NCBI GenBank assembly: GCA_041391465.1
Contig: JAWKNX010000006.1
Span: forward strand, 32,789-96,788
Direction: 5' to 3'
Length of the DNA: 64,000 bases
DNA from: Bdellovibrionales bacterium
GTDB taxonomy: Bacteria; Bdellovibrionota; Bdellovibrionia; Bdellovibrionales; UBA1609
This document shows, one piece after another, positions 3,601 through 56,075 of the stretch. Position numbers and translations under genes: made by a program. The stretch's first letter is position 1. Every line of letters starts with the position of its first letter. The notes under the pieces are model-generated. The model did not search any database, had not been told where the DNA came from, and saw nothing but the letters and a program-made list of their open reading frames with translations.

Positions 3601-3752
3601 TAAACTGCCGTGATGGCCACTCGGTTAAAATTTACGTTGGGTCGCGCTTCCCGTTGAATCACGGCAAAGGTCATTGCACCGGCAATAACAATGACAATAC
3701 TCAAATAGTGCATCGACAGTTTTTGATTATGTATACCTTTAAAAAAATTCAT
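692..3752 (-). pseudogene. RND efflux permease (AcrB/CzcA-type), reading frame broken several times
   Basis: Collinear minus-strand fragments (2622-3752, 2413-2613, 1748-2104, 1546-1779, 949-1230, 692-967) read as consecutive parts of one RND permease. They cover the N-terminal TM helix plus large periplasmic loop (VAITAVYPGASPADIEELVIDPIEEKI), internal TM segments (VVGVIIVLGMLMDDAIVV) and the C-terminal TM bundle (TTLSTLLGLLPTIYGVGG). Confidence 0.85.
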
Positions 3753-3764
3753 ATGACCCTCGAC

Positions 3765-24606: not shown

Positions 24607-25572
24607 TTAAAACTCCAACAGTTTTTTCTCGAGATGATGCTCAGCTTCAACTCTTCGAATAGTTCCCGTCTTTGAGCGCATAACTATTGAGTGGGTTGTT
24701 GCACGTCTACCAGGCAATACTTTTACCCCTCTCAACAAGGGGCCATCTGTCACGCCTGTGGCGACAAACATAACGTCACCCATAGCGAGTTCGTCTCGGG
24801 TGTAGATTTTATCAGGCTCAGAAACTCCCATTTTAATAGCACGTTCTTTTTCTTCATCACTTCTGAATCGCAACCGTCCCACGAAGTCTCCATCAAGACA
24901 CTTGGCTGCGGCGGCTGTTATTACGCCCTCTGGCGCTCCTCCCGTGCCCATCATGATATCAATTCCAGTTTCCTCCCAACAAGTCGCTATTCCGGCTGAA
25001 ACATCGCCATCGCCAATCAGGTGAATTCGTGCTCCCATTTTTCGAACTCGAGAAATAAGATCCTCATGCCGAGGTCTTTCTAGAATGACGACCGTCAAGT
25101 CCTCAACTGATTTCTCCAACGCCTTAGCAACAGATGTAAGATTGTCCTCGACAGTCGCCTCCAATGAAATGACTCCTTTTGCTTTTGGCCCCACAGCAAT
25201 TTTTTCCATGTAAGTGTCAGGTGCATGCAGAAAATTGCCACGCTCGGCGATGGCAATGACTGAAAGTGCGCCGACATCGCCTGTGGCACATAGGTTCGTA
25301 CCCTCCAACGGATCCAAAGCTATATCTACTTTTGGGTCTTCTGGTAATCTTTTTCCCACGGGCTCACCAATATAAAGCATTGGAGCTTCATCTCGCTCGC
25401 CTTCGCCAATCACCACGATCCCATCAATGTTCACACTATCAAAAGCCTTTCTCATGGCATCGACAGCGGCTTGGTCGGCCGCATCTCGATCACCTCTTCC
25501 GGTAAAACGGGCACATGCAAGGGCTGCAAATTCAGTGATTCGTACAAATTCAAGTGCCAGGTTTCTATCCAT
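24607..25572 (-). CDS. glpX: class II fructose-1,6-bisphosphatase GlpX
   Basis: The 321-aa product contains MDRNLALEFVRITEFAALA, VVIGEGERDEAPML, DPLEGTN and HLIGDGDV, which match GlpX-type FBPase. Confidence 0.9.
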   Translation of the reverse strand: MDRNLALEFVRITEFAALACARFTGRGDRDAADQAAVDAMRKAFDSVNIDGIVVIGEGERDEAPMLYIGEPVGKRLPEDPKVDIALDPLEGTNLCATGDVGALSVIAIAERGNFLHAPDTYMEKIAVGPKAKGVISLEATVEDNLTSVAKALEKSVEDLTVVILERPRHEDLISRVRKMGARIHLIGDGDVSAGIATCWEETGIDIMMGTGGAPEGVITAAAAKCLDGDFVGRLRFRSDEEKERAIKMGVSEPDKIYTRDELAMGDVMFVATGVTDGPLLRGVKVLPGRRATTHSIVMRSKTGTIRRVEAEHHLEKKLLEF

Positions 25573-26347
25573 TTTTGCTCTCCTGTTTTAGGGATGGGGC
25601 TTCATTTAATCTTTCAACTATTGTATCAAACACCGGAGCGAGCTCCGTTTCGAGAGTGTGCAGTTGGACCAACACGCTTAAAACTCGAGTCAAAATTTCC
25701 GTATCGGTTTTTTCCGGTGGTTTTTGCGAGCTCAAATCCCCTTCAGAATAGAGATTTTGCACCTGGCTCGATTCGGCAACTCCACCCACTTTAATATCTC
25801 CATCATTATAGGAAAAGGAGCAATCATCCAACAATACTATCACCTGAGTGACCAGCAATTTGGAATCATTCAACCAAAGGTAAACCTGAAGATCCGAAGG
25901 ACCCTGATACCAGTAGGTACACGTTAATTGATGAGAGTAATACTTTGGTTCAATTTTTCGAAGATGAGCACCGACTAGTTTATCTTTCAAATATTTTTCA
26001 AACAAGAGATGCGCTTTTGCGTCCATATCTTCAAAATAAAGTCCCACCAAGCCATTCTTTATCCACATGACTTCTACCTGTGCTTCACAAACATCTTGAT
26101 TAGAAAATTGGATATGAACAGGGTAACTTTGGCAGGCCTGCAAACTGACATGTTCGGGCACTTCTGCGGCAGCACCACGGTAACTTAAGTCGACTATTTT
26201 TGTCTTTTCACCGTTTCCCCACTCCAACCCAACATCCATAAATGATTGAGCCAAATCGTGGGCAACGTGCGTAGAGATTCGGGTGTACTTTCGACCACTG
26301 GGCCGATTTTGGGTGGCATTCCCTTCTTTTTTTTGACCTTCTGCCAT
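25565..26347 (-). CDS. PilZ domain-containing protein (putative c-di-GMP receptor)
   Basis: The 260-aa product has RKYTR (RxxxR) followed by DLSYRGAA (D/NxSxxG). The gene overlaps the glpX start by 8 nt. Confidence 0.65.
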   Translation of the reverse strand: MAEGQKKEGNATQNRPSGRKYTRISTHVAHDLAQSFMDVGLEWGNGEKTKIVDLSYRGAAAEVPEHVSLQACQSYPVHIQFSNQDVCEAQVEVMWIKNGLVGLYFEDMDAKAHLLFEKYLKDKLVGAHLRKIEPKYYSHQLTCTYWYQGPSDLQVYLWLNDSKLLVTQVIVLLDDCSFSYNDGDIKVGGVAESSQVQNLYSEGDLSSQKPPEKTDTEILTRVLSVLVQLHTLETELAPVFDTIVERLNEAPSLKQESKNG

Positions 26348-31295: not shown

Positions 31296-31344
31296 TCTAC
31301 CACTCCTCTTTGTTTTTATTTTTTATATCTGACGAATTTATTTT

Positions 31345-31382
31345 TTAAGTAAAAATATCTGGAGGCGCTGCCCTCCAGATAT
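31345..31382 (-). terminator. intrinsic terminator after paralog 2
   Basis: There is a perfect 11-bp stem ATATCTGGAGG / CCTCCAGATAT (31355-31365 / 31372-31382) with loop CGCTGC. On the minus strand it is followed by TTTTACTT. It lies 58 bp past the stop at 31440. Confidence 0.75.
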
Positions 31383-31439
31383 TTCGGGTGTAACAAACTT
31401 ATTTTGCAGACATCCTTTTAAAATAATAGTTTTAATCGA

Positions 31440-32068: not shown

Positions 32069-32084
32069 AGCACACAACATGCCA
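32069..32084 (-). promoter_or_regulatory. putative sigma-54 (-24/-12) promoter for paralog 2
   Basis: The minus strand reads TGGCATGTTGTGTGCT, compared with the consensus TGGCACG-N4-TTGCW. GG and GC have the exact spacing (GG-N10-GC). It lies about 48 nt upstream of the ATG at 32021. Confidence 0.55.
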
Positions 32085-32214
32085 TAGGTACTGCACGTAT
32101 ATTTTAATCCGAGTTAATTTTGTGTTAAGAAAGTGTTCATCGACTAATAGTTCGACGTTTTTTGAAAAATTTGAGTCCTCAAATGGAACATGTTAGAGAT
32201 CATTTTTTAAGCAC
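32069..32214. repeat. conserved intergenic block, copy A (upstream of paralog 2)
   Basis: Hand alignment with copies B and C gives the shared + strand string AGCACA..CATGCCA...GTTAAT.TTGTGTTAAG.A.GT.TTC....GTTCGAC..TTTT.GAAA.TTT.A.TCCTCAAATG.AACAT.TT......TTTTAAGCA. Confidence 0.8.
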
Positions 32215-32418
32215 TTCTTAAGCCTAATGGGGCGCTAACAAATAATATTTGTATGAAACCGTTTCGAAATGAAATTTCATTGGGATGGGGCTCATCAGTT
32301 GAGACCCCCATGTAAGGATGCGTGAAAAACAAATTGCCAAATGGTTACGCCAAAAGCCGGCTTAATTTGCACCCAACCTAATCATTATTTTTCCTATAAA
32401 ACGAGTGTCAGTTTGAGA

Positions 32419-32444
32419 AACAAAAAGGAGGGTTTGCCCCTCCT
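32419..32444 (-). terminator. intrinsic terminator after paralog 3
   Basis: The stem is AGGAGGG / CCCTCCT (32426-32432 / 32438-32444) with loop TTTGC. On the minus strand it is followed by TTTTTG. Confidence 0.7.
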
Positions 32445-32475
32445 CCTACAAAAAACCTATTCTTCAGAAATCTAG

Positions 32476-33507
32476 TTAAGGTACGTCACGGAGAATATCC
32501 AAGTTAGCGTCATAAACGTCCACACCATTGGCTTCTCCTAGATCTGTTGCCCAATCAATAATAAGTGAGTGAATGGATCCAAATGCCAGTGCTCCTCTCA
32601 CAGTCGCCTGTTGCTGCGAAGTTAAACCACTGGGAAGAGTTATCAATCCGAAATCCAGGCCTGCAGAAAGCACTAAAGCAAAATGGGATACCGTATCCAC
32701 TTCAACACCAGCATAAACCAATGCACCTTCAACTTGGCTTCTTACCGAAGAATTCATACCATTGATCAGCATTTCAGTTGCAGAAAGCAAAAAGTCATCT
32801 AGCTGAGCTCCGGTATAAGTCGCACCATTAACTCCATCATAAAATACTTCAACTGTGCCATAGGTTATTCCATAAATATTGTTGGAGTAAAATGTTGACA
32901 AATTTGTAACTAAATGAGGGCAAGCGTCTGAACCCAAAGAGCAAACAAACTCTCTATATTCTATTTGTTGTTCCACACCATAGGCTGGCGATAAGGAACC
33001 ACCATTCATATAAAAGTTTTTTGCCGCAATTACGTCAGATGTAATGCTCGAAGCTGCCGGATGATTTGCATCAATGGCCAAATCTAAAACTTTAGCAAAA
33101 TGAAATAACGTATCTACTTCTGTAGCTGCAAACTCTAACATAGTATAAAGATCTTGTAGTTCTTGACTGCTTGATGCCTGAGCAATTTGGAGAGCCGTAT
33201 CGTCTGCCCATTGATTAAATTCACTTTGAGTATAGGGAAGACCGTTATTAAAAGACGTTTCGCCAAATGGGACTGGTTCATCCCGCTCTTCTGAAAAGAA
33301 AATATTTGATGCAATAAAACTCGTATCAACTTCTGCAGGCTTATCTAGATACCAACGTATAAAGTAATGTGAGGTTGGATCATTACCAACACCCCAATAG
33401 TCACAATATTCTTGTGGGTAGTCTGTCGGACAGCCCTGGGCCAATGCTGACTCGGTAATACCAAAAGCCATTAAACCCATTACGAGTGTTCTTATAAATT
33501 TTTTCAT
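32476..33507 (-). CDS. secreted two-module paralog 3 (unrecognised family)
   Basis: The product is 343 aa with signal ...ITESALA/QGC and Cys pairs CPTDYPQEYC and FVCSLGSDAC. The module helices are AATEVDTLFHFAKVL and AGVEVDTVSHFALVL...ITLP. The C-terminus is NGVDVYDANLDILRDVP. Confidence 0.8.
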   Translation of the reverse strand: MKKFIRTLVMGLMAFGITESALAQGCPTDYPQEYCDYWGVGNDPTSHYFIRWYLDKPAEVDTSFIASNIFFSEERDEPVPFGETSFNNGLPYTQSEFNQWADDTALQIAQASSSQELQDLYTMLEFAATEVDTLFHFAKVLDLAIDANHPAASSITSDVIAAKNFYMNGGSLSPAYGVEQQIEYREFVCSLGSDACPHLVTNLSTFYSNNIYGITYGTVEVFYDGVNGATYTGAQLDDFLLSATEMLINGMNSSVRSQVEGALVYAGVEVDTVSHFALVLSAGLDFGLITLPSGLTSQQQATVRGALAFGSIHSLIIDWATDLGEANGVDVYDANLDILRDVP

Positions 33508-33552
33508 TATTCCCCCATTTTTTAGGTTTATATTTTTATATTTTATTGAATC

Positions 33553-33581
33553 ACAAGAAAAGGAGAGGTTTCCCTCTCCTT
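33553..33581 (-). terminator. intrinsic terminator after paralog 4
   Basis: The stem is AAGGAGAGG / CCTCTCCTT (33560-33568 / 33573-33581) with loop TTTC. On the minus strand it is followed by TTTCTTG. Confidence 0.7.
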
Positions 33582-33606
33582 AATAAAAATTCAATGTCAT
33601 TTATAA

Positions 33607-34716
33607 TTAAGGTAAATCTCTCAAGGTGTCCGTTTGTGCATCATAAATGTCTACGTTATTAACTTCCGCAACATCCTTGACCCACTCATATATCCAACCG
33701 TCGATTTCACCATCAGCAAGACGTTGCTTTCCAACTTGCTTTTGCCATTCTAATATTTCACTCGGCATTTCTACCATTTCATATTCCAAAGCCATATGGA
33801 GAATTTTTGCAAATTGCGCGACAGTATCCACTTCAAGGCCGGCATTGAATAACGCTAGATCAACTTGAGATTTTACAGAACTGCTCATGCCATTTACAAT
33901 CATAGCCTCGGCAGCCGCAAGTAGACTATCGAATTCTCTTTCCGAATAGGCAACTCCTGTGTCGAAAACAATATCGAATGGCTCCTGATTTGGGTAAAGA
34001 GGATCACTTTGCGATCTATTGCCTTCAAAAAACACAGCAACATCCGAGTAGGTAACACCGTCACTATTGGATGAGAAGTATTGAGCTGTAGACGTTATTT
34101 CAGGTGGGCAAGCATCAGCAACACCATTCACATTCTGCAGAGAACAAACAAATTCCCTATAAGCAATCATCTTTTGTGTCGGATCCATCGACTCCGGCGG
34201 AGGAAAACCACCGATCAAATAAAAATATACTGTTTCAACGTCATATGGAATTTGCCCTGCACCGGGGTGATTAATTGTTATTAGAAAGTCGAGTACATAC
34301 GCAAAATGTTCGAACGTGTCCACTTCGAAAAGGGCATACTCGAGCACCTGATATAGATCTAAATATTCGGAAGTGGTTTCCGCTGTGGCAATCATTCCCT
34401 GAACATCGGAAACCCATTGATCAAATTCAGACTGTCTGTAGGTTAGATCACCTACACTATAAATTGGGTCATTCATAAGTATTGGAGCCGTATCGAATCT
34501 CTCTTCGGCAAAGAAAATGCTAGACGCTATAAAACTCTGGTCCGGATCATATCCCGGCTCGAGATACCACCGATAAAAAATGGGGGCTACGTTATTCTGG
34601 TTTAACCCTTGGCAAATTTCATCCGGCCAGTCCTGCGGACAACTTTGTGCGAGCGCTGATTCACTCAAGCTAAAAGCCATCAGGCCCATTGTTAATAGTG
34701 ATAATAGTTTCCTCAT
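33607..34716 (-). CDS. secreted two-module paralog 4 (unrecognised family)
   Basis: The product is 369 aa with signal ...LSESALA/QSC and Cys pairs CPQDWPDEIC and FVCSLQNVNGVADAC. The module helices are ALFEVDTFEHFAYVL and AGLEVDTVAQFAKIL. The C-terminus is NNVDIYDAQTDTLRDLP. Confidence 0.8.
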   Translation of the reverse strand: MRKLLSLLTMGLMAFSLSESALAQSCPQDWPDEICQGLNQNNVAPIFYRWYLEPGYDPDQSFIASSIFFAEERFDTAPILMNDPIYSVGDLTYRQSEFDQWVSDVQGMIATAETTSEYLDLYQVLEYALFEVDTFEHFAYVLDFLITINHPGAGQIPYDVETVYFYLIGGFPPPESMDPTQKMIAYREFVCSLQNVNGVADACPPEITSTAQYFSSNSDGVTYSDVAVFFEGNRSQSDPLYPNQEPFDIVFDTGVAYSEREFDSLLAAAEAMIVNGMSSSVKSQVDLALFNAGLEVDTVAQFAKILHMALEYEMVEMPSEILEWQKQVGKQRLADGEIDGWIYEWVKDVAEVNNVDIYDAQTDTLRDLP

Positions 34717-34751
34717 ACGTCCCCCTGTTTATTGTTTTTTTATTTAATTTT

Positions 34752-34780
34752 AAAAAAGAAACTCTTGCTTGGAGATTTCT
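34752..34780 (-). promoter_or_regulatory. terminator-like hairpin + U-run inside the 5' leader of paralog 4
   Basis: The minus strand reads AGAAATCTCCAAGCAAGAGTTTCT, an imperfect stem of about 9 bp, followed by TTTTTTAAAA. It lies about 36 nt before the start codon. Confidence 0.3.
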
Positions 34781-34820
34781 ATTGTTAACTTAAAAACTCT
34801 CACGGATTATTTCGACAAGA

Positions 34821-35087
34821 CTTATTCCCAACTATTTAGATTCAACCAAAATATCATTTCTTTTTTTGAAACGACTTTATTTAAAACAGCATTTATTTTA
34901 TTTCCCCGTTTACCCGTGCAGTGATTTACTTTAGTTGTTGGAGCACAGGACATGCCATGCGAGCTGGGCGTAGGTTTTATTTCGCGTTAATTTTATGTTA
35001 AGGATGTATTCACCGGCTAAAAGTTCGACAATTTTTGGGAAATTTTAATCCTCAAATGAAACATATTGCAGCTGAAGTTTTAAGCAA
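34821..35087. repeat. conserved intergenic block, copy B (upstream of paralog 4), includes a shared 5' leader segment
   Basis: It aligns with copy C over about 270 bp and with copy A over the 146-bp core (34942-35087). Confidence 0.8.
34942..34957 (-). promoter_or_regulatory. putative sigma-54 (-24/-12) promoter for paralog 4
   Basis: The minus strand reads TGGCATGTCCTGTGCT, with the same GG-N10-GC geometry. It lies about 225 nt upstream of the ATG at 34716. Confidence 0.55.
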
Positions 35088-35242
35088 CGGCCTCTTCTAA
35101 CGCATCGCAAATAAATGCCGATCGGATATTGAGACTCAAAATGAGGTGAATTTATAAGAACAAACTTAAAAAAAAATTGCACCCTCAAGTGCAATTGTAA
35201 AAATACTTAGCGTTTTGTTTTGAAATACTAATGAGCATTGTT

Positions 35243-35270
35243 TTTTAAAAAAGAGAGGGCAATGGCCCTC
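35243..35270 (-). terminator. intrinsic terminator after paralog 5
   Basis: The GC stem is GAGGGC / GCCCTC (35255-35260 / 35265-35270) with loop AATG. On the minus strand it is followed by TCTTTTTTAAAAAA. Confidence 0.7.
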
Positions 35271-35292
35271 CCTTAAATTGATGTCTCTATTA

Positions 35293-36378
35293 TTACTGTA
35301 ATGAAACGTCTAGAAGCATGCCATAATATGAGCTGTAAACATCCACATTGTGAAATTCTGCAATCTCTAAGGCCCAATCATAGATCGCCGGATGAATAAT
35401 CCCTTCAGCCAACCCTTGCGCAACACTTTCTTCTGCTTGAGGAGTAAATCCTGTTGGCAGTGTAATTATCCCAAAATCAAGAGCTGTTCCAAGTACTTTT
35501 GCAAAATGCTCTACTGTATCAACCTCGGTTCCTGCGAAAGCCAATGCTGCTTCAACTTCAGTGCGAGTCGCAGAGTCCATACCATTAATGTGCATGTCAG
35601 TTATTGAACTTAAAAAGTCAACCAGCTCTTCCTCTAAGTATGGCACTCCACTGCTGAACGGTTGATGAAACGGCTCCTGATTCGTTATGATAGTAACGCT
35701 TTCACTGCGATCCTGTTCAAAAAATACGGCCGCAGACTCATAGGAAATTCCATATCGGTTGTTACTATAATAATCGTTTTTATTTGTAATAACTGTCGGG
35801 CAGGCATCTGAGCCCAAATTACATATAAATTCTCTGTACTCAACTTCTTGGTGCACACCTTTTGAAAAAGATAATGCCCCTCCGTTTAGATAATAATTAT
35901 TAGCTGCAATAATGCCTATTGTTAAATCATCCGCCGAGGGGTGATCAGCATCAATTGCTAAGTTGAGTACTCCAGCAAAATGAAAAATTGAATCCACTTC
36001 TACCGCAGCATATGCAAGCATATCCCAAATAGGTTCCAACTCTACGGAGTTAATAGCATCATCAATCATTTTGCCCGTGGACTCGTACCAATCCTCAAAT
36101 TCGTTTTGAGTATAAACAAGACCATTATCATATACTACAGCTCCCAGCGGAGGGGGTGAATTCCATTCCGTCCTGTCTTGCGAATAGAATATGTAAGAAG
36201 ATAGGAACGTATCATATCTATCTGAGGGATGTGTATAATACCACTCAAAGAAGAAATCGACGGAAGCTTGTCCAGTAATAAAGGTATCACATAGATCATT
36301 ACAGTTATCAGCCAAGGCTGATTTGGCAAAGCCCAGCGTAAGTAAGCATGCCACAGCTAGTGTTTTTAATTTTTTCAC
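35293..36378 (-). CDS. secreted two-module paralog 5 (unrecognised family)
   Basis: The product is 361 aa with a GTG start, signal ...GFAKSALA/DNC and Cys pairs CNDLC and FICNLGSDAC. The module helices are AAVEVDSIFHFAGVL and AGTEVDTVEHFAKVL...ITLP. Confidence 0.8.
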   Translation of the reverse strand: MKKLKTLAVACLLTLGFAKSALADNCNDLCDTFITGQASVDFFFEWYYTHPSDRYDTFLSSYIFYSQDRTEWNSPPPLGAVVYDNGLVYTQNEFEDWYESTGKMIDDAINSVELEPIWDMLAYAAVEVDSIFHFAGVLNLAIDADHPSADDLTIGIIAANNYYLNGGALSFSKGVHQEVEYREFICNLGSDACPTVITNKNDYYSNNRYGISYESAAVFFEQDRSESVTIITNQEPFHQPFSSGVPYLEEELVDFLSSITDMHINGMDSATRTEVEAALAFAGTEVDTVEHFAKVLGTALDFGIITLPTGFTPQAEESVAQGLAEGIIHPAIYDWALEIAEFHNVDVYSSYYGMLLDVSLQ

Positions 36379-36412
36379 TCGATTCCCCTTTGTTTGTTTA
36401 TTTATTGTTTAA

Positions 36413-36445
36413 ACAAAAATTAAAAAACCTCTTAAAAAGAGATTT
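36413..36445 (-). promoter_or_regulatory. terminator-like hairpin + U-run inside the 5' leader of paralog 5
   Basis: The minus strand reads AAATCTCTT-TTT-AAGAGGTTT (9-bp stem with one G-U), followed by TTTAATTTTTG. It lies about 40 nt before the start codon. Confidence 0.3.
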
Positions 36446-36486
36446 GTCTTAATGCCCAAATTGACTGATGAATTTATTTGAAAGAT

Positions 36487-36757
36487 GTTATTCTCAACAA
36501 TTATGACTCAACCAAAACGCCGCTTCTTTTTTGAAACGACTCTATCTAGAACGGCATTTATTTTTATTAATTTCCCCAAATGCCCATGTGATCATTCACC
36601 TCTTTTGATAGAGCACAGGTCATGCCACGTGAACTGGTCGTAGATCCCTTCTCACGTTAATATTGTGTTAAGGAAGTGTTCGCCGTCGAAAAGTTCGACA
36701 ATTTTTTGGAAATTTTAATCCTCAAATGAAACATATTGCAGATGAAGTTTTAGGCAG
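36487..36757. repeat. conserved intergenic block, copy C (upstream of paralog 5), includes a shared 5' leader segment
   Basis: It aligns with copy B over about 270 bp and with copy A over the core (36612-36757). Confidence 0.8.
36612..36627 (-). promoter_or_regulatory. putative sigma-54 (-24/-12) promoter for paralog 5
   Basis: The minus strand reads TGGCATGACCTGTGCT, with the same geometry. It lies about 235 nt upstream of the GTG at 36378. Confidence 0.55.
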
Positions 36758-38652: not shown

Positions 38653-40892
38653 TCAGGCCGTAATATTTTGATTTCTTTTGTGAACCAGTACAATCAGTGC
38701 TGGAAGGAAAAGTAAATCAAACACCAGTGCCGCTAACACGCCCGTTGTGGTTAAAAGCCCAAAATTTCTAAGTGGAGCAAAAGAAGCGAAGCTTAATACA
38801 GCGAACTGAGAGCTGAGTATCAAAGTGGTTATGATAATAGCCCGTCCAGACTCATTATAAACCTCGTGAATAATATCCTTAATGGGCAATGTTCCAATTC
38901 GTTTTCGATAACCGTTAAAAATATGAATGGTATCGTCAACCGCAATTCCAACTGTGACAGAGGCAATCATTGCCGTTCCCATATCCAGCCATATGCCAAA
39001 CATACCCATCAATATAAACATCGAAAGCACAGGCAAAAAGTTAGGTATAAAACAATATAGGGCGTCTCTAAATGACTGCCACATAATAGCCATGAGCAAC
39101 AAAATTAAACTAAAACTCACCGCTACGCTTTTAAAGAGATCACTGATTATTAAGTTTTCTTGATCAGAGAACATCTTCCCATGCCCTCCGTATCGCCACT
39201 GTACATCAGTAAAACCAATGGACTTTATCCTCTCTTCAACTTGAGCAACCACTCCTTCAATTTCGTTGGCTCCTTGGACATCGAGATTTAGAGTCATTTT
39301 AAGCCTCTTCTGACTCCGAGATAAAAAATTATATAGATCGTCGCCATCGTAAATGAAAAAATATTGCTGAATAAGGCTGTCATCGTCAGGGACGGCAAAA
39401 AATTCTTGTTTCTCTCCGTGAAAGGCCCAATGCATTTGTTTTAAAACATCAGCCGGTGAAAATACACGGCTTATGCCTTCAATAGCCTCGATTTGACCCT
39501 TTAAATCATCCAAATTCTTTAAAAATTTAGAGCTCAGAATACTATCAGGGTCCGAGTCAAAAACCACATTCACTATAGTCGTACCCGAAAATTGATGGGC
39601 GATTGCTTCTGTCGCTTTATTAATTCGGTGATCGTCGCTAAAAAATTTGTAGAGATTGGATTCAGATTCTACTTGAAACGCAAAATAACTTAACACCAAA
39701 GCACCTAGTAAAAGTCCTATCACGATTCTCTTGGGAAATGTTAATGAAAGTTCAATCGCATAGTTTACAATGTTATCCAAGAAAGCTTTCAGTGAAGAGT
39801 TTTGCCTCCACCCCGAAGATGCAAACCGTATTAAAAGTGGAGGCAACACATAAATAACTAACAAATAAACAAGCAGAACACCCATTCCACCTATCACCGC
39901 AATGCTTTTTACCGGGGGAATGTCGCTCATGGCGAGGGAAAACAATCCCACACTTGTTGTGAGCGCGGAATATAAAGAAGGCTTATTAATTGCCTTAACT
40001 GTGTCAACTACGGCTTCCGCATGCTCAACTCCGGAGTTTTTGGCAGCAATATCCCATTATAAAGGTGAACCGTAAAAGCTGTACTCAGCGCCATCATCAG
40101 AGTGGGTATCATCGAGCCGATTAAATTAAACGGCCAGCCAAACACGCCGAAAAATGACATCGTCACGATAGCTGCCAATAAATTAAAACCTGCTCCCAGT
40201 GCAACTGCCCCTAGAGAGTTGAACAGCAAAAACAACAGAGCAATTCCAATCAACAATGTCAACGGCGCCAGAACGAGCATTATATTATTCAATTCATCAA
40301 ACTGAGCTGTATCAACAGCAAATTCACCACCATAAGCGACAAGGGCGTTTTCCAATTCATGTTTTTTAAGCGATTGTAGAACCTTTTCTTCATAGAATTT
40401 TCTCTCAAAGGAAGTTTGAATATCTTTGGGCTCAACCAAAACCCCAAATACCTTAATATCTTTTGAAACAAAAAAGTCCTTAACGAAGTGGTCTACGCTC
40501 ACACTTTCACTGACTTGGTCAAATGAGGAGTTTTCTGGGTCGTCAGAGCTAATTATAGGTCGAATCTGAAAACCCTCGTCCGTTGCTCGAATGGCCTCAT
40601 AGTCAAATATCGAACCGATGTCTTTTGTTTTATCAAAACTTTTAATTTCATTCACAAAGCGAGACAGCTTCGACAAAAACTTGCTTTCAAAAGCGTTTTC
40701 CGATTCAAACATGAAGAACAAGGACTCTTCATTGTTAAATTCTTTGATGAGTTCTTCGGTGAGAATCCGGCTTTCCAACTCGTGTGGTATGTAAGTCATC
40801 GGTGTGTTAGAAACTAATAACTTAGTGAGAAAAAATAACGAGAGTGCGATGAGCACTACAACAATGAAATTAGCATTTTTTAAATTCAACAT
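38653..40892 (-). pseudogene. RND-superfamily exporter, MMPL/COG1033 type, one frameshift near 40050
   Basis: Two collinear halves (40008-40892 and 38653-39951) each have a TM1 / periplasmic loop / 5-TM bundle. Hand-joining gives ...VHLYNG|IAAKNSGVEHAEAVVDTVKAINKPSLYSALTTSVGLFSLAMSD.... Confidence 0.8.
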
Positions 40893-40996
40893 GATTTATT
40901 CTAACAAGGAAACTCGTTGGTTCAACTAATAGAACTGATTCAATTATTGACTCTTCTGCTAAAATCGTCATCATATTGCTAACGAAGGATTTTAAT

Positions 40997-41776
40997 ATGC
41001 GCTTAATACTGGGTATTTTACTATTATTCTCTATAAAAGCACAGGCCCTCACAGGAACTGAAATTGCCCAAAAAGTTTACAACTCCAACAGGGAAGCTGA
41101 TTCTTTTCAAAAAACAAAGATGACCCTCATAGATAAGAGTAAATCAAAAAGAGAGAGGGTATTTATTGTCATTGCTAAGGACAACAATAAATATGACTCC
41201 CAGTCCCTTATCGCATTTTCGGCGCCCAAGAGTATAAAGAGAACTGGACTTCTAATACATAATCATAAAGGGTCTGATGCTGACCAATGGCTTTACCTCC
41301 CCGCCTTGAAAAAAACCCGACGTATAGCTAGTGCCAAAAAACAAGGCCGGTTTGTAGGTTCTGATTTAAGTTATGAGGACCTTGAAGATCGACCGGTATC
41401 AAAAGACAATCACGAACTTATCGGCGAAAAGGTGATTGGGGGCCAAAAATACTATCTTATTAAAAGCACCCCGAAAGACCCTAGCGACTCTATGTATAGA
41501 AAAATTGAGTATTTTGTAGATCCGAATCGGTGGACGATAAAAAAGGCTGATTTTTATACTGAAAAAGAAAAGGTGTATAAAACTTTGCTTGTTAAAGACT
41601 TTAAAAAAGTGGGAAAGACCTGGATTGCAGAACACACTACGATTAAAAACCTTGAGTTGGGCCACACAACTGTTCTCGAAGTTATCGAGACTAAATTCAA
41701 CAATAACTTCAACCCTACATATTTCCAAAAAGGGGCTTTGGAGAATCCAGGAATTTTGATGAAGTATTTAAAATAA
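40997..41776 (+). CDS. LolA-like outer-membrane lipoprotein-sorting family protein
   Basis: The signal peptide is MRLILGILLLFSIKAQA/LTG. The stretch DQWLYLPALKKTRRIASAKKQGRFVGSDLSYEDL is the signature I associate with the LolA_like family. The track ORF starts 21 nt earlier, at 40976. Confidence 0.7.
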   Translation: MRLILGILLLFSIKAQALTGTEIAQKVYNSNREADSFQKTKMTLIDKSKSKRERVFIVIAKDNNKYDSQSLIAFSAPKSIKRTGLLIHNHKGSDADQWLYLPALKKTRRIASAKKQGRFVGSDLSYEDLEDRPVSKDNHELIGEKVIGGQKYYLIKSTPKDPSDSMYRKIEYFVDPNRWTIKKADFYTEKEKVYKTLLVKDFKKVGKTWIAEHTTIKNLELGHTTVLEVIETKFNNNFNPTYFQKGALENPGILMKYLK

Positions 41777-43537
41777 CTTTTGCCAGCGGATTTCCAGAAA
41801 ATCATTTTTGTCATGAAAGCCAAAAAAGCTATCTGCATGGCCATTGAAGATATGGACAGCAACACCAAATGTGCTTGTATCAGACAAGTCATATCCAAAG
41901 TAGGGAGAAAAATAAAGACTGCTGTCGGCTCCATTTAGAATAGCCCTCAATTCCACTCGGAGTTTATCGGCCATCATTAATGTGGAGCTCTGTAGAATGT
42001 ATTGTATTAGATCTGAATTATCTAAGAAGGTTTCCTGGTCCTCTAACAATTGCTCGTGAACCACTTGCCACGTCAAGGTCGTCGTCCAACTAGAAAACTC
42101 AAAGTCACCGCCGATGGCTAGCCGAAACTTTGGGATTTCTGTGACCTCTAAAACTTCATTCAGAACCGCGGAATTTAGAATATAGGCCAACTCCACTTTG
42201 TAAAGCTGGCCATCAAAGGTATTCACGTAGTCCAATCCAAAAACCTGCTCCTTAAAGTATTCAAAATCCACACCTGCCGACAATCCGGTAGCGTCCACTG
42301 AAGCTAATAAAATTTGCTGTCTTAGGGTTTCTGAAAACTGCAGACCGGGCACATCCGGATAGGCATTTAAGTAGGTGAAAGACACATCCCCTTCGCCTGT
42401 TCTTGTTATCCGCACCCCGTAGCTTTGATCCTCACGTTCTCCAAACCCCATACGGACATTTGTAATCAGAGATGGGGCTATGAGTTCCGGATCGCCGCCT
42501 CTTATTGTACCCTCTTCTCTTGAAATACCTGTCCATAGGCTTTCTTCACTTTGCTTTCTGCCCTTTTCCAGCCCAAAATCCACATAGCCATCCCACTTCC
42601 ACGAGCCCGAGTAATGCTGATACCTCATGGCAGTAATAGGCCTGCGATAGCTCGCACCTGAATCAAATACAAATCGAGGCAGGTTTTTAATGTTAACCCG
42701 ATCGAAACTAGATAACTCGTCAAACACACCCCAGGAGAACAATTGTTTGCCAACTGTCAATTGACCCATCGAAAAGGGCTTATTCAAATAGGCTTCGTCC
42801 AATTCAATTATATTTTTATGAAAATTCATGTTGGCGCTTTCTTCATTCCAAATCTCAATGCGCCCCATTAATTTACCCGTAACTTCATCACCGAAATAAT
42901 CAAACCCCACCAAAGCATTGACATAACCCGACTGATATTCGCTGTCGCCAACATGTCCCTCTACAAATAGTTTAGACTGAGCCATGGAAAAGGCAGAGAA
43001 ATAATCAGATAATTTTAGATCCGGTGTCTTTTCAGTTTCATTGACTGAAATTATATACACCGGAATTTCTTTTCTCTTCTTTATACGGATAATATGATTC
43101 GGCCTCACGCCTGCCGCCAGTAGCTCCTGCCGACGCTGATCCGTCTTCTCCCTTTTAAGAGTGATCAACTGGATAAAGTAACTTTTTTTCTTAAATGTAA
43201 CCTTTTGCTGTCGCTTAAGATTTATTGATGAATATTGTTTGGAGTCTTGAACCAATAAATAATAGACATCCTTCTCTTCTTTGGATTTTTTCAATTCATA
43301 ATCGATATTTTGTTCTTTTAGCCTTTCCACATAGGCCTGTGCTTTCTTTAAATTATAGCCTCGAACAATTTTTGCCATCGAAGAACTCGAATAAATGGTG
43401 ATAAGAGAGATTATAATTAGGGATCTCAAATGGCTCTCCAAAAGGTGTAAGTTGAAGCATATCTCAATCCAAATACAATGTGAAGAGTCACCAGATGTAC
43501 ACACGTGCTTTGATTTTTGAATTTGGATTTGAACCAT
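41768..43537 (-). CDS. putative outer-membrane beta-barrel protein
   Basis: The ORF is up to 589 aa and has alternating-hydrophobic beta-strand patterning. The C-terminus ...FLEIRWQKLF ends in an aromatic residue, as in an OMP beta-signal. The likely true start is the TTG at 43429, giving the signal MRSLIIISLITIYSSSSMA. Confidence 0.55.
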   Translation of the reverse strand: MVQIQIQKSKHVCTSGDSSHCIWIEICFNLHLLESHLRSLIIISLITIYSSSSMAKIVRGYNLKKAQAYVERLKEQNIDYELKKSKEEKDVYYLLVQDSKQYSSINLKRQQKVTFKKKSYFIQLITLKREKTDQRRQELLAAGVRPNHIIRIKKRKEIPVYIISVNETEKTPDLKLSDYFSAFSMAQSKLFVEGHVGDSEYQSGYVNALVGFDYFGDEVTGKLMGRIEIWNEESANMNFHKNIIELDEAYLNKPFSMGQLTVGKQLFSWGVFDELSSFDRVNIKNLPRFVFDSGASYRRPITAMRYQHYSGSWKWDGYVDFGLEKGRKQSEESLWTGISREEGTIRGGDPELIAPSLITNVRMGFGEREDQSYGVRITRTGEGDVSFTYLNAYPDVPGLQFSETLRQQILLASVDATGLSAGVDFEYFKEQVFGLDYVNTFDGQLYKVELAYILNSAVLNEVLEVTEIPKFRLAIGGDFEFSSWTTTLTWQVVHEQLLEDQETFLDNSDLIQYILQSSTLMMADKLRVELRAILNGADSSLYFSPYFGYDLSDTSTFGVAVHIFNGHADSFFGFHDKNDFLEIRWQKLF

Positions 43538-43636
43538 CTATTGATTTGACTCATTTTGATACAATTTCCTCTGGGCACAGTGTCCCTGCCAAACTAAGAC
43601 ACTCAACTTTGGTCTAGGTTTGGTCGATAAGTCTCT

Positions 43637-44919
43637 ATGAACCAAAAAGCACTTCAAAAGCTTTTAAAAAAGGTGATGTTTCATCTTCCTAAGCCCTTGC
43701 GTGACCCAATGATTCGATCTCAGGTCAAGATCTCCTATGACTTGGGAGAAGACTTGATCATTAAAACGGCTGAAACCCAAGAAGAACTCGAGAGCGCTTT
43801 TAGACTTCTGCATGATGCCTATGTTGAAAATCAACTTATTAATAAGAACTCCTCAGGGTACAGAATCACCAAATACCACTACTCCCATCCACAACAACCG
43901 TCGTGGCCAAATATAAGGGTCAAGTGGTTGGGACGCTCTCAATCATTCTAGATGGCCCTCTGGGTTTACCTATTGATGAGTTTATAAATATTGATGGCCA
44001 AAGACGACAAGGGCAAAGAATCGTCGAGCTTTCGGCTCTCGCCGTTCGAAACTCTACTGAATTTAGAGGAACTAAGCTCTATTTTCCACTCGCCAATTAT
44101 GTTTACCGCTACAGCAAGCGATTTTTACAAGCCGATACTGTTGTTTGTGTCCTAAAAAATACCGCAGCCCCCTTTATGAGGCATTTTTGGTTTCAAGGAA
44201 ATTAAAGGAAATGTTTCCAACAATTACAAGTTTGTTAAAGATCATGGGTCAAAAGCTTTATACATACCAATCAATGGGTATGATCAAGAGTTTCGGCAAA
44301 AACACTTCTTCAAAGGTAATGACATCAAGAATATTGCAAAGTTGAACTGCATGAATTCACAGATCAATTTATTTTCCCCAAACGACCTTTTTTTTCGGCC
44401 TCTAACAACTGCCTAAGTGTGGAAGTTATAGAAAACCTTTTTGCCAAATGCCCTGAGCTTAAAGAAAATTTGACAGATAATGAGCTTGAAATTTTACAAT
44501 ATGTTTTTAATAGAAAAAGAGTATAAAAAGCTGTTTAGCTCATCAAACCCATTTTTTCATGTCCAGAGCAAAGTATTCGTTACCCCTCAACCTGTCATGC
44601 TTATTTTGTTGATGACGAAAAAATAAAGCACCAATTTAAAGTCATTGATATTTCAGAAAATGGCGCCTCCGTATTAACTGACACAAATGAGATGTTTAAT
44701 GCTTTTGAAGAAAATCAGACGATCTCACTTAAAATCTATATTCGCCAAGACAGCTTCGTTCACGTACAATCAAGAATTGCCTCGAAAAACGACATCAATA
44801 AACTAATTGGTCTAGAGTTTGTTTCCGTCAAAGGCGAGCTGTGGGAGGAGTTTCTTGAATATCTAAAATCCACGTATGTAAATGATCTCCACCTAATTCC
44901 AAAACAAAAAGCCTCTTAG
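43637..44919 (+). pseudogene. FeeM-like N-acyl amino acid synthase (GNAT-related) fused to a C-terminal PilZ-like domain, several frameshifts
   Basis: The N-terminal fragments contain ELESAFRLLHDAYVE, VVGTLSIILDGPLGLPIDE and IVELSALAV. The C-terminal part contains FKVIDISENGASVL (DxSxxG) and ...GLEFVSVKGELWEEFLEYL. Confidence 0.5.
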
Positions 44920-49279: not shown

Positions 49280-52015
49280 TTAAGGCTTTATTGTTTTTGT
49301 GATTAACCTTCGTACGAGGATCTTTCTGAGCTCTTCAACCCAAAGCACCAAACTTGCAACTATACCAATGGCAAAAAAATGCTCTACGTCTATTGGCACA
49401 GTATGAAAGAACTGACTTAGTGGAGGCCAGTAAATCACGGCCAAATGAAATATAATACCCAACGAAGCCCACCTAAAAGCCATGGATTTTTAAATATTTT
49501 CAGGAAAATGCTGAGTTTAAACCAGAGCGACAGTTAAGAACATTATACCATTGGCAAACTGCAAGAATGGTAAAAGTTTCGGTTGCACTAGAGCAAATGA
49601 TGCGCCCTCAAAAGAGCGATACAAAAACCAACCAAATGTAGAAGTCACAGGTGCCAATACCATTAGTGGCACCCTTGACAAAAGTGCTCTATCTAAAAGC
49701 GGTTGGTTTGTGGGTATAGGAGGCCTCTCCATTTCATCCCCCTCAGGCGGCTCCATAATAAGGTTAACTGTGAGAGTTCCTTCGGTTACGAGATTAATCC
49801 AAAGAATTTGGACTGCTGCAAGGGGTGGGGCAAAGCCAAAAATTAAAGCTAAAAATAAAACTATGACTTCATCAATTGAAGTTACAAATAAAAATAAAAT
49901 CAGCTTTTTAATATTTTGATAAACTAGCCGCCCCTCTTTTATTGCTGTAACAATCGTAGAAAAATTATCGTCAGTTATAACAATTTTGGCGGCCTCCTTA
50001 GCGACTTCGGTACCGGTGATTCCCATAGCTACGCCAACATTAGCCTTCACCAAGGCGGGTGCATCATTGACCCCATCGCCTGTCATGGCAACAACATCTC
50101 CTTTTTTTTGGTAGGCTGAAACGATTCGAAGCTTTTGCGCGGGATGGACGCGTGCAAAAACACTGATTCTATCTAATTTACTTATTAATTCCTGCTCAGA
50201 TAGAGCATCTAATTCATTACCATCTATTGCTAAATCATTGTTTTGGCTTATGCCCAAGGCCTTTGCAATGGCCAGCCCTGTTTCTTTGTGGTCGCCAGTT
50301 ACCATTACAGGTTTAATGCCCGCTTGTTGACATAGTCGAACCGAGTCCGCAACCTCATCTCTTGGGGGGTCGAGCTGTCCCACCAAACCTATTAATGTTA
50401 CTTTCTTTGCATAGGGTTCATAGCCCTTAGCGCTATCTATATAGGCATCTTCTACAAACCCTAAAGCTAATAATCGTAAGGCAGAGTTGGCCATTCTTTT
50501 TGACGCCAATTGAATATTTATAATTATATCACTAGTAAGTGGCTCAATTTGACCATCTTGATAAATAGAACCACAAATCTCTAGCAACGACTCCGGAGCA
50601 CCTTTAATGTAAATGACACTTTTTCCCTCAACATCATACTGTGTTGCCATCATTTTAGAATCTGAATTAAAAGGTAACTCTGCATTTCGGGTGTATCGCT
50701 CTCTAAGTTCTAAGGTGTCTAAACCGCCTTTTGCAGCAAGGGTGAGAAGTGCTCCTTCGGTTGGATCTCCTAGTATGCGCCAGTTATTATTTGAAGCATC
50801 AGGCCCCAGCAGTTGGGCATCATTGCAAAGAATACTTGCCTCTAAAACTTTACCTAAAGTTTTGTCGTTTCCGGGGTTCAGGTCATGTCCGGCTACTGAA
50901 AAATGTCCTTCTGGAATATAACCTACCCAGAGACAGTAATATCCCTGTTACCAAAGGGCAGGTAAAACCGTAGTCACGGCCATTTCGTTTCGAGTGAGCG
51001 TACCTGTTTTATCACTACAAATTACAGTGGTAGAGCCCAGTGTTTCCACGGTACAACCGTCTGACAATAGTTCCCGGCGCGCCATTCTCTGTACTCCAAC
51101 CGCGAGGGCGATTGTCATTGCTACTGGTAAGCCTTCTGGAACCAATGAGACCATTTGACTAATTGCAATCATAAAAATTTCTATAAACGAAATTCCACGC
51201 CATAGCCCTATAGTGATGACCAGCAAGAACATTAAAAACGAAGCGACGACAAGAACCTTGCCAAATTTTTGAATTCGAACTTCCAGCTGGGTTTTTGGCT
51301 CGACTGTGGTCGTTGTAAGATGGGCGATCTTGCCGATCTCATTATTAACTCCAGTGGCTGTAACTATTGCAAGCCCCTGCCCTGAAGTAATATGAGTGCC
51401 AGCATAAATCATATTGTGGCGGTCGACGAGTAAGGTGTTTTTATCTACGACACCAATAGTCTTAATAACCGAAAGGGATTCTCCCGTTAGTGCGGCCTCC
51501 GCTACAGATATCATTGACGCCTCAATTAACCTTGCATCAGCAGGCACAGCATCACCTGAATTGAGTACCAGAATGTCCCCCGGCACTATTTCACTGGCCT
51601 CAACGAGGTGTTCATGGCCATCCCGAATCACTCGTGCATTTAATTTGGAAAGTCGCCGTAAGGCTCTAAGGGAATTTTCAGCTCGACCTTCTTGGTAGGC
51701 TCCTATAACTGCGTTTGTAAAAACAACCACAAAGATTACGACGGCGTCACGGGCCTCCCCAATAAATAGAGCAATTCCAGCGGCGCCCAAAAGAAGGTAA
51801 ATCAGCGGACTTAAAAACTGATGAGCGAAAATTGAAAAAAGAGAGCGTTTTTTTGGCTCTGGTAGAGTGTTCGTTCCATACTCGGCCAGTCGACGAGTAA
51901 CCTCTGCAGAAGATAGGCCCGCTGCAATATTTGATCTGAGGCTTGATACTGCATCACTGGCACTTTTGGAGTGCCAAGGCGTATTAACTTCTGTGTTCAT
52001 GAACTGGTTCTGCAT
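49280..52015 (-). pseudogene. cation-translocating P-type ATPase (P2-like, Ca2+/Mg2+ type), fragmented
   Basis: N-terminal fragment 50948-52015 contains ICSDKTGTLTRNEM (phosphorylation site). Fragment 49517-50653 contains MVTGDHKETG and TGDGVNDAPALVKANVGVAMG. The C-terminal TM fragment is 49280-49483. Confidence 0.85.
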
Positions 52016-55998: not shown

Positions 55999-56075
55999 TG
56001 GAGCGGGTGATGGGATTCGAACCCACGGCCTCGACCTTGGCAAGGTCGCGCTCTAGCCAGCTGAGCTACACCCGC
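55999..56075 (-). tRNA. tRNA-Gly (anticodon GCC), CCA encoded
   Basis: The reverse complement is GCGGGTGTAGCTCAGCTGGCTAGAGCGCGACCTTGCCAAGGTCGAGGCCGTGGGTTCGAATCCCATCACCCGCTCCA. It folds by eye into a cloverleaf with a 7-bp acceptor stem, anticodon loop UUGCCAA and T-loop GGTTCGAATCC. Confidence 0.9.

Follow-up and report, generated by a model that had tools for sequence, protein, structure and literature searches.

A candidate sigma-54 promoter cassette present in three copies upstream of diverged orphan paralogs in an uncultured Bdellovibrionales bacterium

Upstream homology boxes are known from families of paralogous surface-protein genes, among them erp, ospEF and mlp of Borrelia burgdorferi and vlp and vsp of Mycoplasma, and these boxes contain sigma-70-type promoters and are found on plasmids or at phase-variable loci. 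Enhancer-dependent sigma-54 promoters that combine an upstream activator site with an IHF bend have been described at Pseudomonas putida Pu, Klebsiella nifH and Desulfovibrio vulgaris orp (PMC3897727, PMC2709558, PMC3844500), with a usual enhancer distance of 70–150 bp (PMC3844500), and sigma-54 also drives multi-copy small RNAs, namely Qrr1–5 of Vibrio and the enterobacterial GlmY and GlmZ (sigma-54 sites in PMC3844500). Here we analyze three copies of a conserved intergenic block (blocks A, B and C) found in 64,000 nt of DNA (hereafter the window; G+C 41%) within a 139.7-kb contig of the NCBI metagenome-assembled genome (MAG) “Bdellovibrionales bacterium”. All three blocks have the same orientation and lie directly upstream of paralogs of one family, whose products are signal-peptide proteins, and each block ends, on the side facing its gene, in a sequence that resembles a sigma-54 −24/−12 element. 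We propose, with a probability of roughly 0.6 and on the evidence of the DNA sequence, that the blocks are three copies of an enhancer-dependent sigma-54 promoter cassette, which would act as an upstream homology box and keep three diverged orphan genes under common control.

Conserved blocks upstream of three diverged paralogs

The paralogs form an array of five tandem genes on the minus strand, P1 to P5 (locus tags R2827_05395 to 05415), and three of these genes are preceded by a block. Block A (32069–32214, minus strand) is a 145-nt core upstream of P2 (31440–32021; R2827_05400, a single-domain paralog of 193 aa), with weaker similarity that continues to ~32250. Block B (34942–35087, minus strand), likewise a 145-nt core, precedes P4 (33607–34716; R2827_05410, 369 aa), and block C (36612–36757, minus strand) precedes P5 (35293–36378; R2827_05415, 361 aa) in the divergent intergenic region between P5 and a plus-strand gene that begins at ~36967. 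The two remaining genes, P1 (30231–31295; R2827_05395, 354 aa) and P3 (32476–33507; R2827_05405, 343 aa), have no block and lie behind the strong terminators of P2 and P4, respectively.

A first-pass annotation made from the letters of the window had placed the three copies at these positions on the minus strand, and comparison by MAFFT and blastn confirmed this placement. By blastn, A and B were 76.6% identical over 145 nt (E 3e-26), A and C were 74.5% identical over 141 nt, and B and C were 77% identical over 301 nt. Within the 145-nt core, pairwise identity was 77% (A–B), 72% (A–C) and 85% (B–C), and 98 of the 145 columns were invariant. The three copies of the core are not separated by a single indel, which fits a constraint on helical phasing. 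Neither blastn nor nhmmer detected a further copy of the block in the 64-kb window.

As expected for an upstream homology box, this level of conservation (72–85% identity) far exceeds that of the coding regions behind the blocks, since P2, P4 and P5 share only 42–48% nucleotide and 21–36% amino-acid identity in pairwise comparisons; the amino-acid figure had been put at 40–50% in the first-pass annotation, which proved too high. Identity at four-fold degenerate sites within identical codons of these three genes was ~30%, a value that corresponds to saturation, and the earlier suggestion that the blocks are better conserved than neutral sequence thus holds. The high identity of the blocks, together with the saturation of four-fold degenerate sites, indicates that the block either evolves several times slower than synonymous sites or was copied after the genes had diverged.

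The putative −24/−12 element and the DNA upstream of it

At the gene-facing end of each block, the minus strand reads TGGCATG-N4-GTGCT, and the three 16-mers were exactly those first reported, with GG and GC at the exact GG-N10-GC spacing in every copy. The putative element of copy A (TGGCATGTTGTGTGCT, 32069–32084) gives a predicted transcription start at ~32058, 36 nt before the P2 ATG (32021); that of copy B (TGGCATGTCCTGTGCT, 34942–34957) predicts a start at ~34931, 215 nt before the P4 ATG (34716); and that of copy C (TGGCATGACCTGTGCT, 36612–36627) predicts a start at ~36601, 223 nt before the P5 GTG (36378). In all three copies the element is on the gene strand and points at the gene. The distance from −12 to the start codon is 48 nt in copy A. 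In copies B and C it is 226–234 nt, a long distance that still falls in the known range.

Compared with the consensus TGGCACG-N4-TTGCW, the element matches at 10 of the 12 specified positions (an earlier count of 14 of 16 had included the four free spacer positions). Matches to this consensus with two mismatches are not rare by themselves (9 in the window versus 8.3 expected), but GG and GC are both retained only in those within the three blocks. The sequence TGGCATGNNNTGTGCT occurred 3 times in the window versus 0.07 expected, and the core TGGCAY-N6-TGCW also occurred 3 times, always in a block, versus 0.68 expected. Both deviations from the consensus are found in real Salmonella sites, TGGCATG for example at hycA and pspG, and GTGC at glmZ (PMC3844500).

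Sites were scored with a matrix built from 29 intergenic sigma-54 sites of Salmonella (Table 3 of PMC3844500); the C of the GC was set as −12, and the core comprised −26 to −20 together with −15 to −11. The core score was 16.4 bits in all three copies, compared with leave-one-out scores of 13.3–19.7 (median 16.8) for the real sites, 13 of which fell below 16.4. At this score, 0.17 chance matches would be expected in 64 kb with both strands counted, and by our own arithmetic the chance of finding such a core in one block of 145–185 nt in one orientation is ~2–3 in 10,000. When the full 18-mer matrix was used, copy C scored 18.0 bits, which equals the median of the real sites and is the best match in the window.

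The distribution of substitutions also follows the sigma-54 consensus. Within the 16-mer, all 12 specified positions were invariant and three of the four spacer positions varied, a pattern shown by 4 of 560 possible arrangements (p = 0.007, hand calculation). Conservation drops right past −12, and the three-way homology stops ~10–20 nt after it. Between B and C, identity falls to ~62% from about −10 to +30, flanked on either side by modules of 75–100% identity. A promoter edge predicts this dip and subsequent rise and a single gene-conversion tract does not, so the B–C profile fits the former better.

Upstream of the element, the landmarks CATTTGAGGA (−127), GTCGAAC (−98), TTAACA (−70), TTAAC (−59) and TGGCATG (−26) occupy the same offsets in all copies, in agreement with the first description of CATTTGAGGAYTMAAATTT, GTCGAAC and a TTAAC-N6-TTAAC repeat (−127, −98 and −70/−59). 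The most conserved part of the block is a distal candidate activator-binding region (32150–32185 in A, 35023–35058 in B and 36693–36728 in C, minus strand), which contains CATTTGAGGAYTMAAATTT at −127 to −109 and GTCGAAC at −98 to −92; this stretch, −92 to −127, falls within the usual enhancer distance given above. Closer to the element is an A/T-rich direct repeat, TTAACA-N5-TTAAC (32113–32128 in A, 34986–35001 in B and 36656–36671 in C, minus strand; −70 to −55), which is overlapped in all three copies by an IHF-like match, WATCAANNNNTTR, at −69 to −57. The conserved geometry and the lack of indels fit the classical activator–IHF–promoter layout, known for example from the deltaproteobacterium D. 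vulgaris (PMC3897727).

Searches for other kinds of conserved content in the blocks gave negative results. No sigma-70 −35/−10 pair was kept in all three copies. Rfam returned no match to the blocks either at gathering thresholds or when E values up to 5 were allowed, and RNAalifold predicted, for the two strands, only weak consensus folds (−9 and −11 kcal/mol over 166 nt) without covariation. Six-frame translations and lists of small open reading frames (ORFs) contained no frame with a conserved start, a Shine–Dalgarno sequence or third-position bias; tblastn with the paralogs detected no gene remnants in intergenic DNA; and inverted repeats, sought as the ends of a mobile element, do not flank the blocks. 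Two further promoter-like sequences, a sigma-28-like GTCGATGA and a GAACTT resembling the −35 of extracytoplasmic function (ECF) sigma factors, were set aside because by eye they were either not kept in all copies or without a matching −10. With a core of good quality, invariant consensus positions, and no conserved sigma-70 promoter, ORF, Rfam family, fold, gene remnant or mobile-element end, the best reading of the blocks appears to be a sigma-54 promoter with its enhancer. The conservation, motif quality, orientation and geometry described above are observations, from which we infer sigma-54 dependence, the point where transcription starts, and binding sites for an activator and IHF.

In the model that we favor, each block would be a copy of one enhancer-dependent promoter cassette that was copied with the genes. 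RNA polymerase containing sigma-54 would bind TGGCATG-N4-GTGCT as a closed complex, and an AAA+ activator bound to the conserved DNA at ~−90 to −150 would contact the polymerase by DNA looping and open the promoter, aided in looping by the A/T-rich TTAAC repeat and the IHF-like site at −70 to −55. Transcription would start ~12 nt past the GC and continue into P2, P4 and P5, with a 5′ untranslated region (UTR) of 36 nt for P2 and a leader of ~220 nt for P4 and P5. Because the cassette has remained nearly unchanged, with exact spacing, while the genes diverged to saturation, P2, P4 and P5 are probably switched on together by one signal. Such a model presupposes sigma-54 in the organism. Since rpoN has been reported in both cultured lineages of Bdellovibrio and like organisms, in B. 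bacteriovorus HD100 (bd0843; PMC3464611, PMC11209729) and in Bacteriovorax marinus SJ (PMC3526173), it is likely by analogy to be present in the source organism as well.

Several observations weigh against a sigma-54 assignment. The full 18-mer scores of copies A and B (12.2 and 11.0 bits) lie below those of all 29 training sites, and 2.5–4.7 matches are expected per 64 kb at these scores; the low values are due almost entirely to a C at −9, a base that never occurs in the small training set. Matrix scoring thus placed the core of all three copies and the 18-mer of copy C, but not the 18-mers of A and B, within the range of the real sites, and we do not read the low scores of the latter as a negative result. 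In addition, the extended consensus is unmatched at its lower-case flanking positions, and the IHF-like site carries two mismatches. We assign the activator and IHF sites only as candidates, because no dyad-symmetric activator site could be recognized in the conserved upstream DNA. The 64-kb window encodes no protein with an RpoN box or the GAFTGA motif of activators. The variable columns of the block show weak clustering (runs test, P = 0.04), so that later copying, and not selection specific to the motifs, may account for part of the conservation. No orthologous loci, in which the retention of GG and GC could be compared independently, were found in 185,579 species genomes. Finally, in copies B and C two hairpins with U-runs separate the motif from the start codon, which is ~230 nt away, and neither the length nor the hairpins of these leaders had been considered in the first-pass annotation.

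Alternative readings of the blocks, leaders and terminators

An alternative explanation for the conservation of the blocks is that they are a regulatory upstream homology box for another sigma factor, or for ordinary repressors or activators, and that the GG-N10-GC is fortuitous. Candidates under this explanation are an ECF-type promoter with GTCGAACTT as its −35 and a proximal A/T-rich promoter near the genes. With 98 of 145 columns invariant, a chance match to some known motif is possible, and the ECF-like −35 sequence GAACTT is indeed invariant at −95. Copy A also contains the sole good sigma-70 match, TTAACA-16-TAAAAT, which agrees with the consensus at 10 of 12 positions. Moreover, P1, P3, P4 and P5 share the arrangement of a hairpin with a T-run, an A/T-rich spacer of 40–58 nt and a Shine–Dalgarno sequence, which hints at a proximal promoter independent of the block. 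However, B (TAAAAC) and C (AGGGAT) have lost the sigma-70 −10, leaving no pair common to all copies; no ECF-type −10 (CGT or TCTGA) is present 16–17 nt past either GAAC; and of a sigma-28-like GCCGATAA only part is kept, in A and B alone, as judged by eye. The low chance probability of a core of this quality and the agreement of the 16-mer pattern with the sigma-54 consensus also argue against a fortuitous GG-N10-GC. We consider this explanation unlikely, although it survives better than the others.

The leaders of copies B and C raise a different possibility. The first-pass annotation had reported that these two copies align further toward the genes, and this additional similarity is real: past the less conserved stretch that follows the block, B and C have in common a second module at about +35 to +115 with 75–93% identity. 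The leader segment carrying it extends over 34798–34941 in copy B, where it is shared only with C, and over 36464–36611 in copy C (both minus strand); the module was found nowhere else in the window. It contains a first hairpin, GUCGUUUC-A7-GAAAUGAU at 34853–34875 in B and its counterpart at 36519–36540 in C, each followed by UUUUGGUUG. The common form of the hairpin is GUCGUUUC-A6/7-GAARYGRY, and its four substitutions, all of which lie in the 3′ arm, preserve pairing. Predicted energies are −10.3 kcal/mol in C and −6.8 kcal/mol in B (z-scores of −3.1 and −2.7, respectively). This hairpin, which corresponds to no Rfam family, could act in attenuation or bind a protein. A second hairpin with a U-run lies ~40 nt before the P4 start in leader B (34757–34780, minus strand; −4.2 kcal/mol) and ~47 nt before the P5 start in leader C (36425–36445, minus strand; −6.4 kcal/mol), the position that is taken before P1 and P3 by the terminators of the upstream genes. 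Copy A resembles B and C with ~190 nt removed. A seemingly conserved reading frame in the B and C leaders (KINAVL...VVSKKE) was rejected, as it has no shared start and needs a frameshift.

From these features it could be argued that the promoter of B and C mainly makes a short terminated RNA of ~155–185 nt corresponding to the second module, either as paralogous small RNAs or as an attenuated leader, that P4 and P5 are expressed by regulated read-through or from promoters of their own, and that only copy A is a plain mRNA promoter. The conserved second module, the maintained pairing of the first hairpin with UUUUGGUUG after it, the placement of the second hairpin where real terminators sit, and the comparison with copy A are all in favor of this view. 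On the other side, Rfam contains no matching family even at E up to 5, folding of the whole leader reaches significance in C (z −3.4) and not in B (z +0.5), the second hairpin is weak in both leaders, the module does not occur elsewhere in the window, and covariation analysis of two sequences has no power. The B and C leaders may be attenuated, or may be the source of short terminated RNAs, yet with two sequences, no Rfam match and inconsistent whole-leader folding we keep this as a minority reading, somewhat less probable than a box for another sigma factor.

Terminators also bear on how the array is divided into transcription units. A terminator-like hairpin follows each of the five genes, and those after P5 (−16.3 kcal/mol), P4 (−15.5 kcal/mol; 33560–33581, minus strand) and P2 (−18.5 kcal/mol; 31354–31383, minus strand) are strong. 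An extra terminator-like hairpin, AATTGCACTTGAGGGTGCAATT followed by T9, is located between the P5 terminator and block B (35175–35196, minus strand). P3 and P1 start 55–58 nt behind the terminators that precede them (intergenic regions 33508–33606 and 31296–31439), after A/T-rich spacers with ATATAAAAA. With strong terminators after P4 and P2, transcription of P4–P3 and of P2–P1 as single units would require substantial read-through, and the sigma-54 units proposed in the first-pass annotation are therefore unlikely. Although we found no convincing promoter in the spacers before P3 and P1, it is more likely that these two genes have their own promoters there. Overall, the sigma-54 interpretation of the first-pass annotation is supported with respect to the quality of the core, its orientation and its place at the gene-proximal edge, and not with respect to the operon units.

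A third explanation is that the blocks are a non-functional or selfish repeat, such as a recent copy, a gene-conversion tract or what is left of a small mobile element, and that the copies are similar simply because they are young. Consistent with this idea, substitutions are spread fairly evenly through the block, as the marginal runs test given above indicates, and the tree of the blocks, which pairs B with C and places A further away, disagrees with the gene tree, in which P3, which has no block, is the nearest relative of both P4 and P5. Several properties of the blocks are difficult to reconcile with it, however. All three copies are co-oriented and upstream of paralogs of one family, with none elsewhere in the 64 kb, and they lack terminal inverted repeats. 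A 17-base block motif had only chance matches, without extended similarity, in the 185,579 species genomes, and two composite block patterns had 0 and 3 matches in Joint Genome Institute (JGI) metagenomes, all 3 of them by chance and without the −12 GC. There are zero indels in the block despite an indel-rich assembly, and B–C conservation in two modules separated by a dip is unlike one conversion tract. A young repeat is accordingly improbable.

That the block encodes a small protein is least probable of all, since the frames open in all three copies (a plus-strand frame of 12–33 codons, ...NPQM(K/E)H(I/V)..., and a minus-strand frame of 15–25 codons, MFHLR(I/T)(K/Q)I...) have no Shine–Dalgarno sequence, though neighboring genes have strong ones, vary in stop position among the copies and show no third-position bias in their substitutions when read codon by codon.

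An orphan gene family and comparison with known systems

Searches of Pfam, NCBIfam and PHROGs and sequence searches of the PDB returned no match for the P1–P5 family. The N- and C-terminal halves of the paralogs are related by an internal duplication of ~150 residues (BLASTP E 1e-10 to 1e-15). An AlphaFold2 model of a paralog was all-alpha (predicted local distance difference test score, pLDDT, of 76) and had no significant fold neighbor in the PDB. When 1.84 billion representative proteins were searched exhaustively with HMMER, nine family members were identified, all from the same MAG, consisting of P1–P5 and the products of two extra loci, both split, on other contigs; word-index searches added no members. 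The family is thus an orphan confined to one MAG. No compositional island signal was detected around the array.

Splitting is not restricted to this family. Several conserved genes of the window are split by frameshifts into adjacent ORFs when read with the standard bacterial code, namely those for an HAE3/MMPL RND transporter (38653–40892), a P-type ATPase (49517–52015), a FeeM-like acyltransferase (43631–44202) and AcrB (695–3764). Because such genes are many, the assembly probably contains indel errors, or else the organism is rich in pseudogenes. The gene divergent from P5 (36967–38636, plus strand) encodes a protein that has two CxxCH motifs and matches cytochrome c only weakly, and past it lies a cluster (38653–43537) that specifies the HAE3 RND transporter, a LolA-like/DUF1329 protein and another protein, of 589 aa, that matches nothing in Pfam. 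Elsewhere, the window contains genes for two PilZ-domain proteins, which are cyclic di-GMP receptors (25565–26347 and 44539–44916), and a tRNA-Gly(GCC) at 55999–56075.

If confirmed, the sigma-54 promoter cassette would offer a first handle on the regulation, in an uncultured Bdellovibrionales bacterium, of an orphan secreted-protein family whose seven loci all belong to one genome, with no member elsewhere among ~15 billion proteins. The cassette would also be a small, clear example of regulatory DNA that was held constant while the controlled genes diverged to saturation. The current view of sigma-54 promoters is not challenged by this case, which is tidy, testable and unsurprising. A more far-reaching and doubtful proposal, to which we give slightly less weight than to short RNAs from B and C, is a lineage-specific regulon in which one sigma-54 activator would control an orphan, internally duplicated, all-alpha secreted family restricted to this lineage of predatory bacteria, and a conserved RNA of ~150–190 nt, acting as a small RNA or an attenuator, would gate expression in two of the three copies. 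If true, this would be a new sigma-54-driven RNA element without an Rfam family.

Among known systems, the blocks compare most directly with the enhancer-dependent promoters Pu, nifH and orp. Like them, the blocks have a GG-N10-GC core of typical quality, no −35/−10 pair and fixed spacing between elements; as further similarities, an A/T-rich IHF-like site lies at −70 to −55, the DNA from −90 to −150 is conserved, and copy A has a short 5′ UTR. In contrast to these promoters, the blocks have no recognizable dyad-symmetric activator site, and a 220-nt leader with hairpins follows two of the three.

With Qrr, GlmY and GlmZ, the blocks share paralogous copies of a sigma-54-type promoter that are followed, in B and C, by a conserved segment and a hairpin with a U-run, and they share with glmZ the GTGC variant at −12. 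They differ in that the B and C segment has neither an Rfam match nor a robust fold, that the candidate terminators are weak, and that the segment lies directly before a gene, where a 5′ leader is equally likely. Compared with the boxes of Borrelia and Mycoplasma, the blocks are distinguished by a sigma-54-type motif, by their association with chromosomal tandem genes and by their presence upstream of only three of five paralogs. What they have in common with those boxes is that, within one genome, non-coding upstream DNA is far more similar between copies than the coding regions of the secreted proteins behind it.

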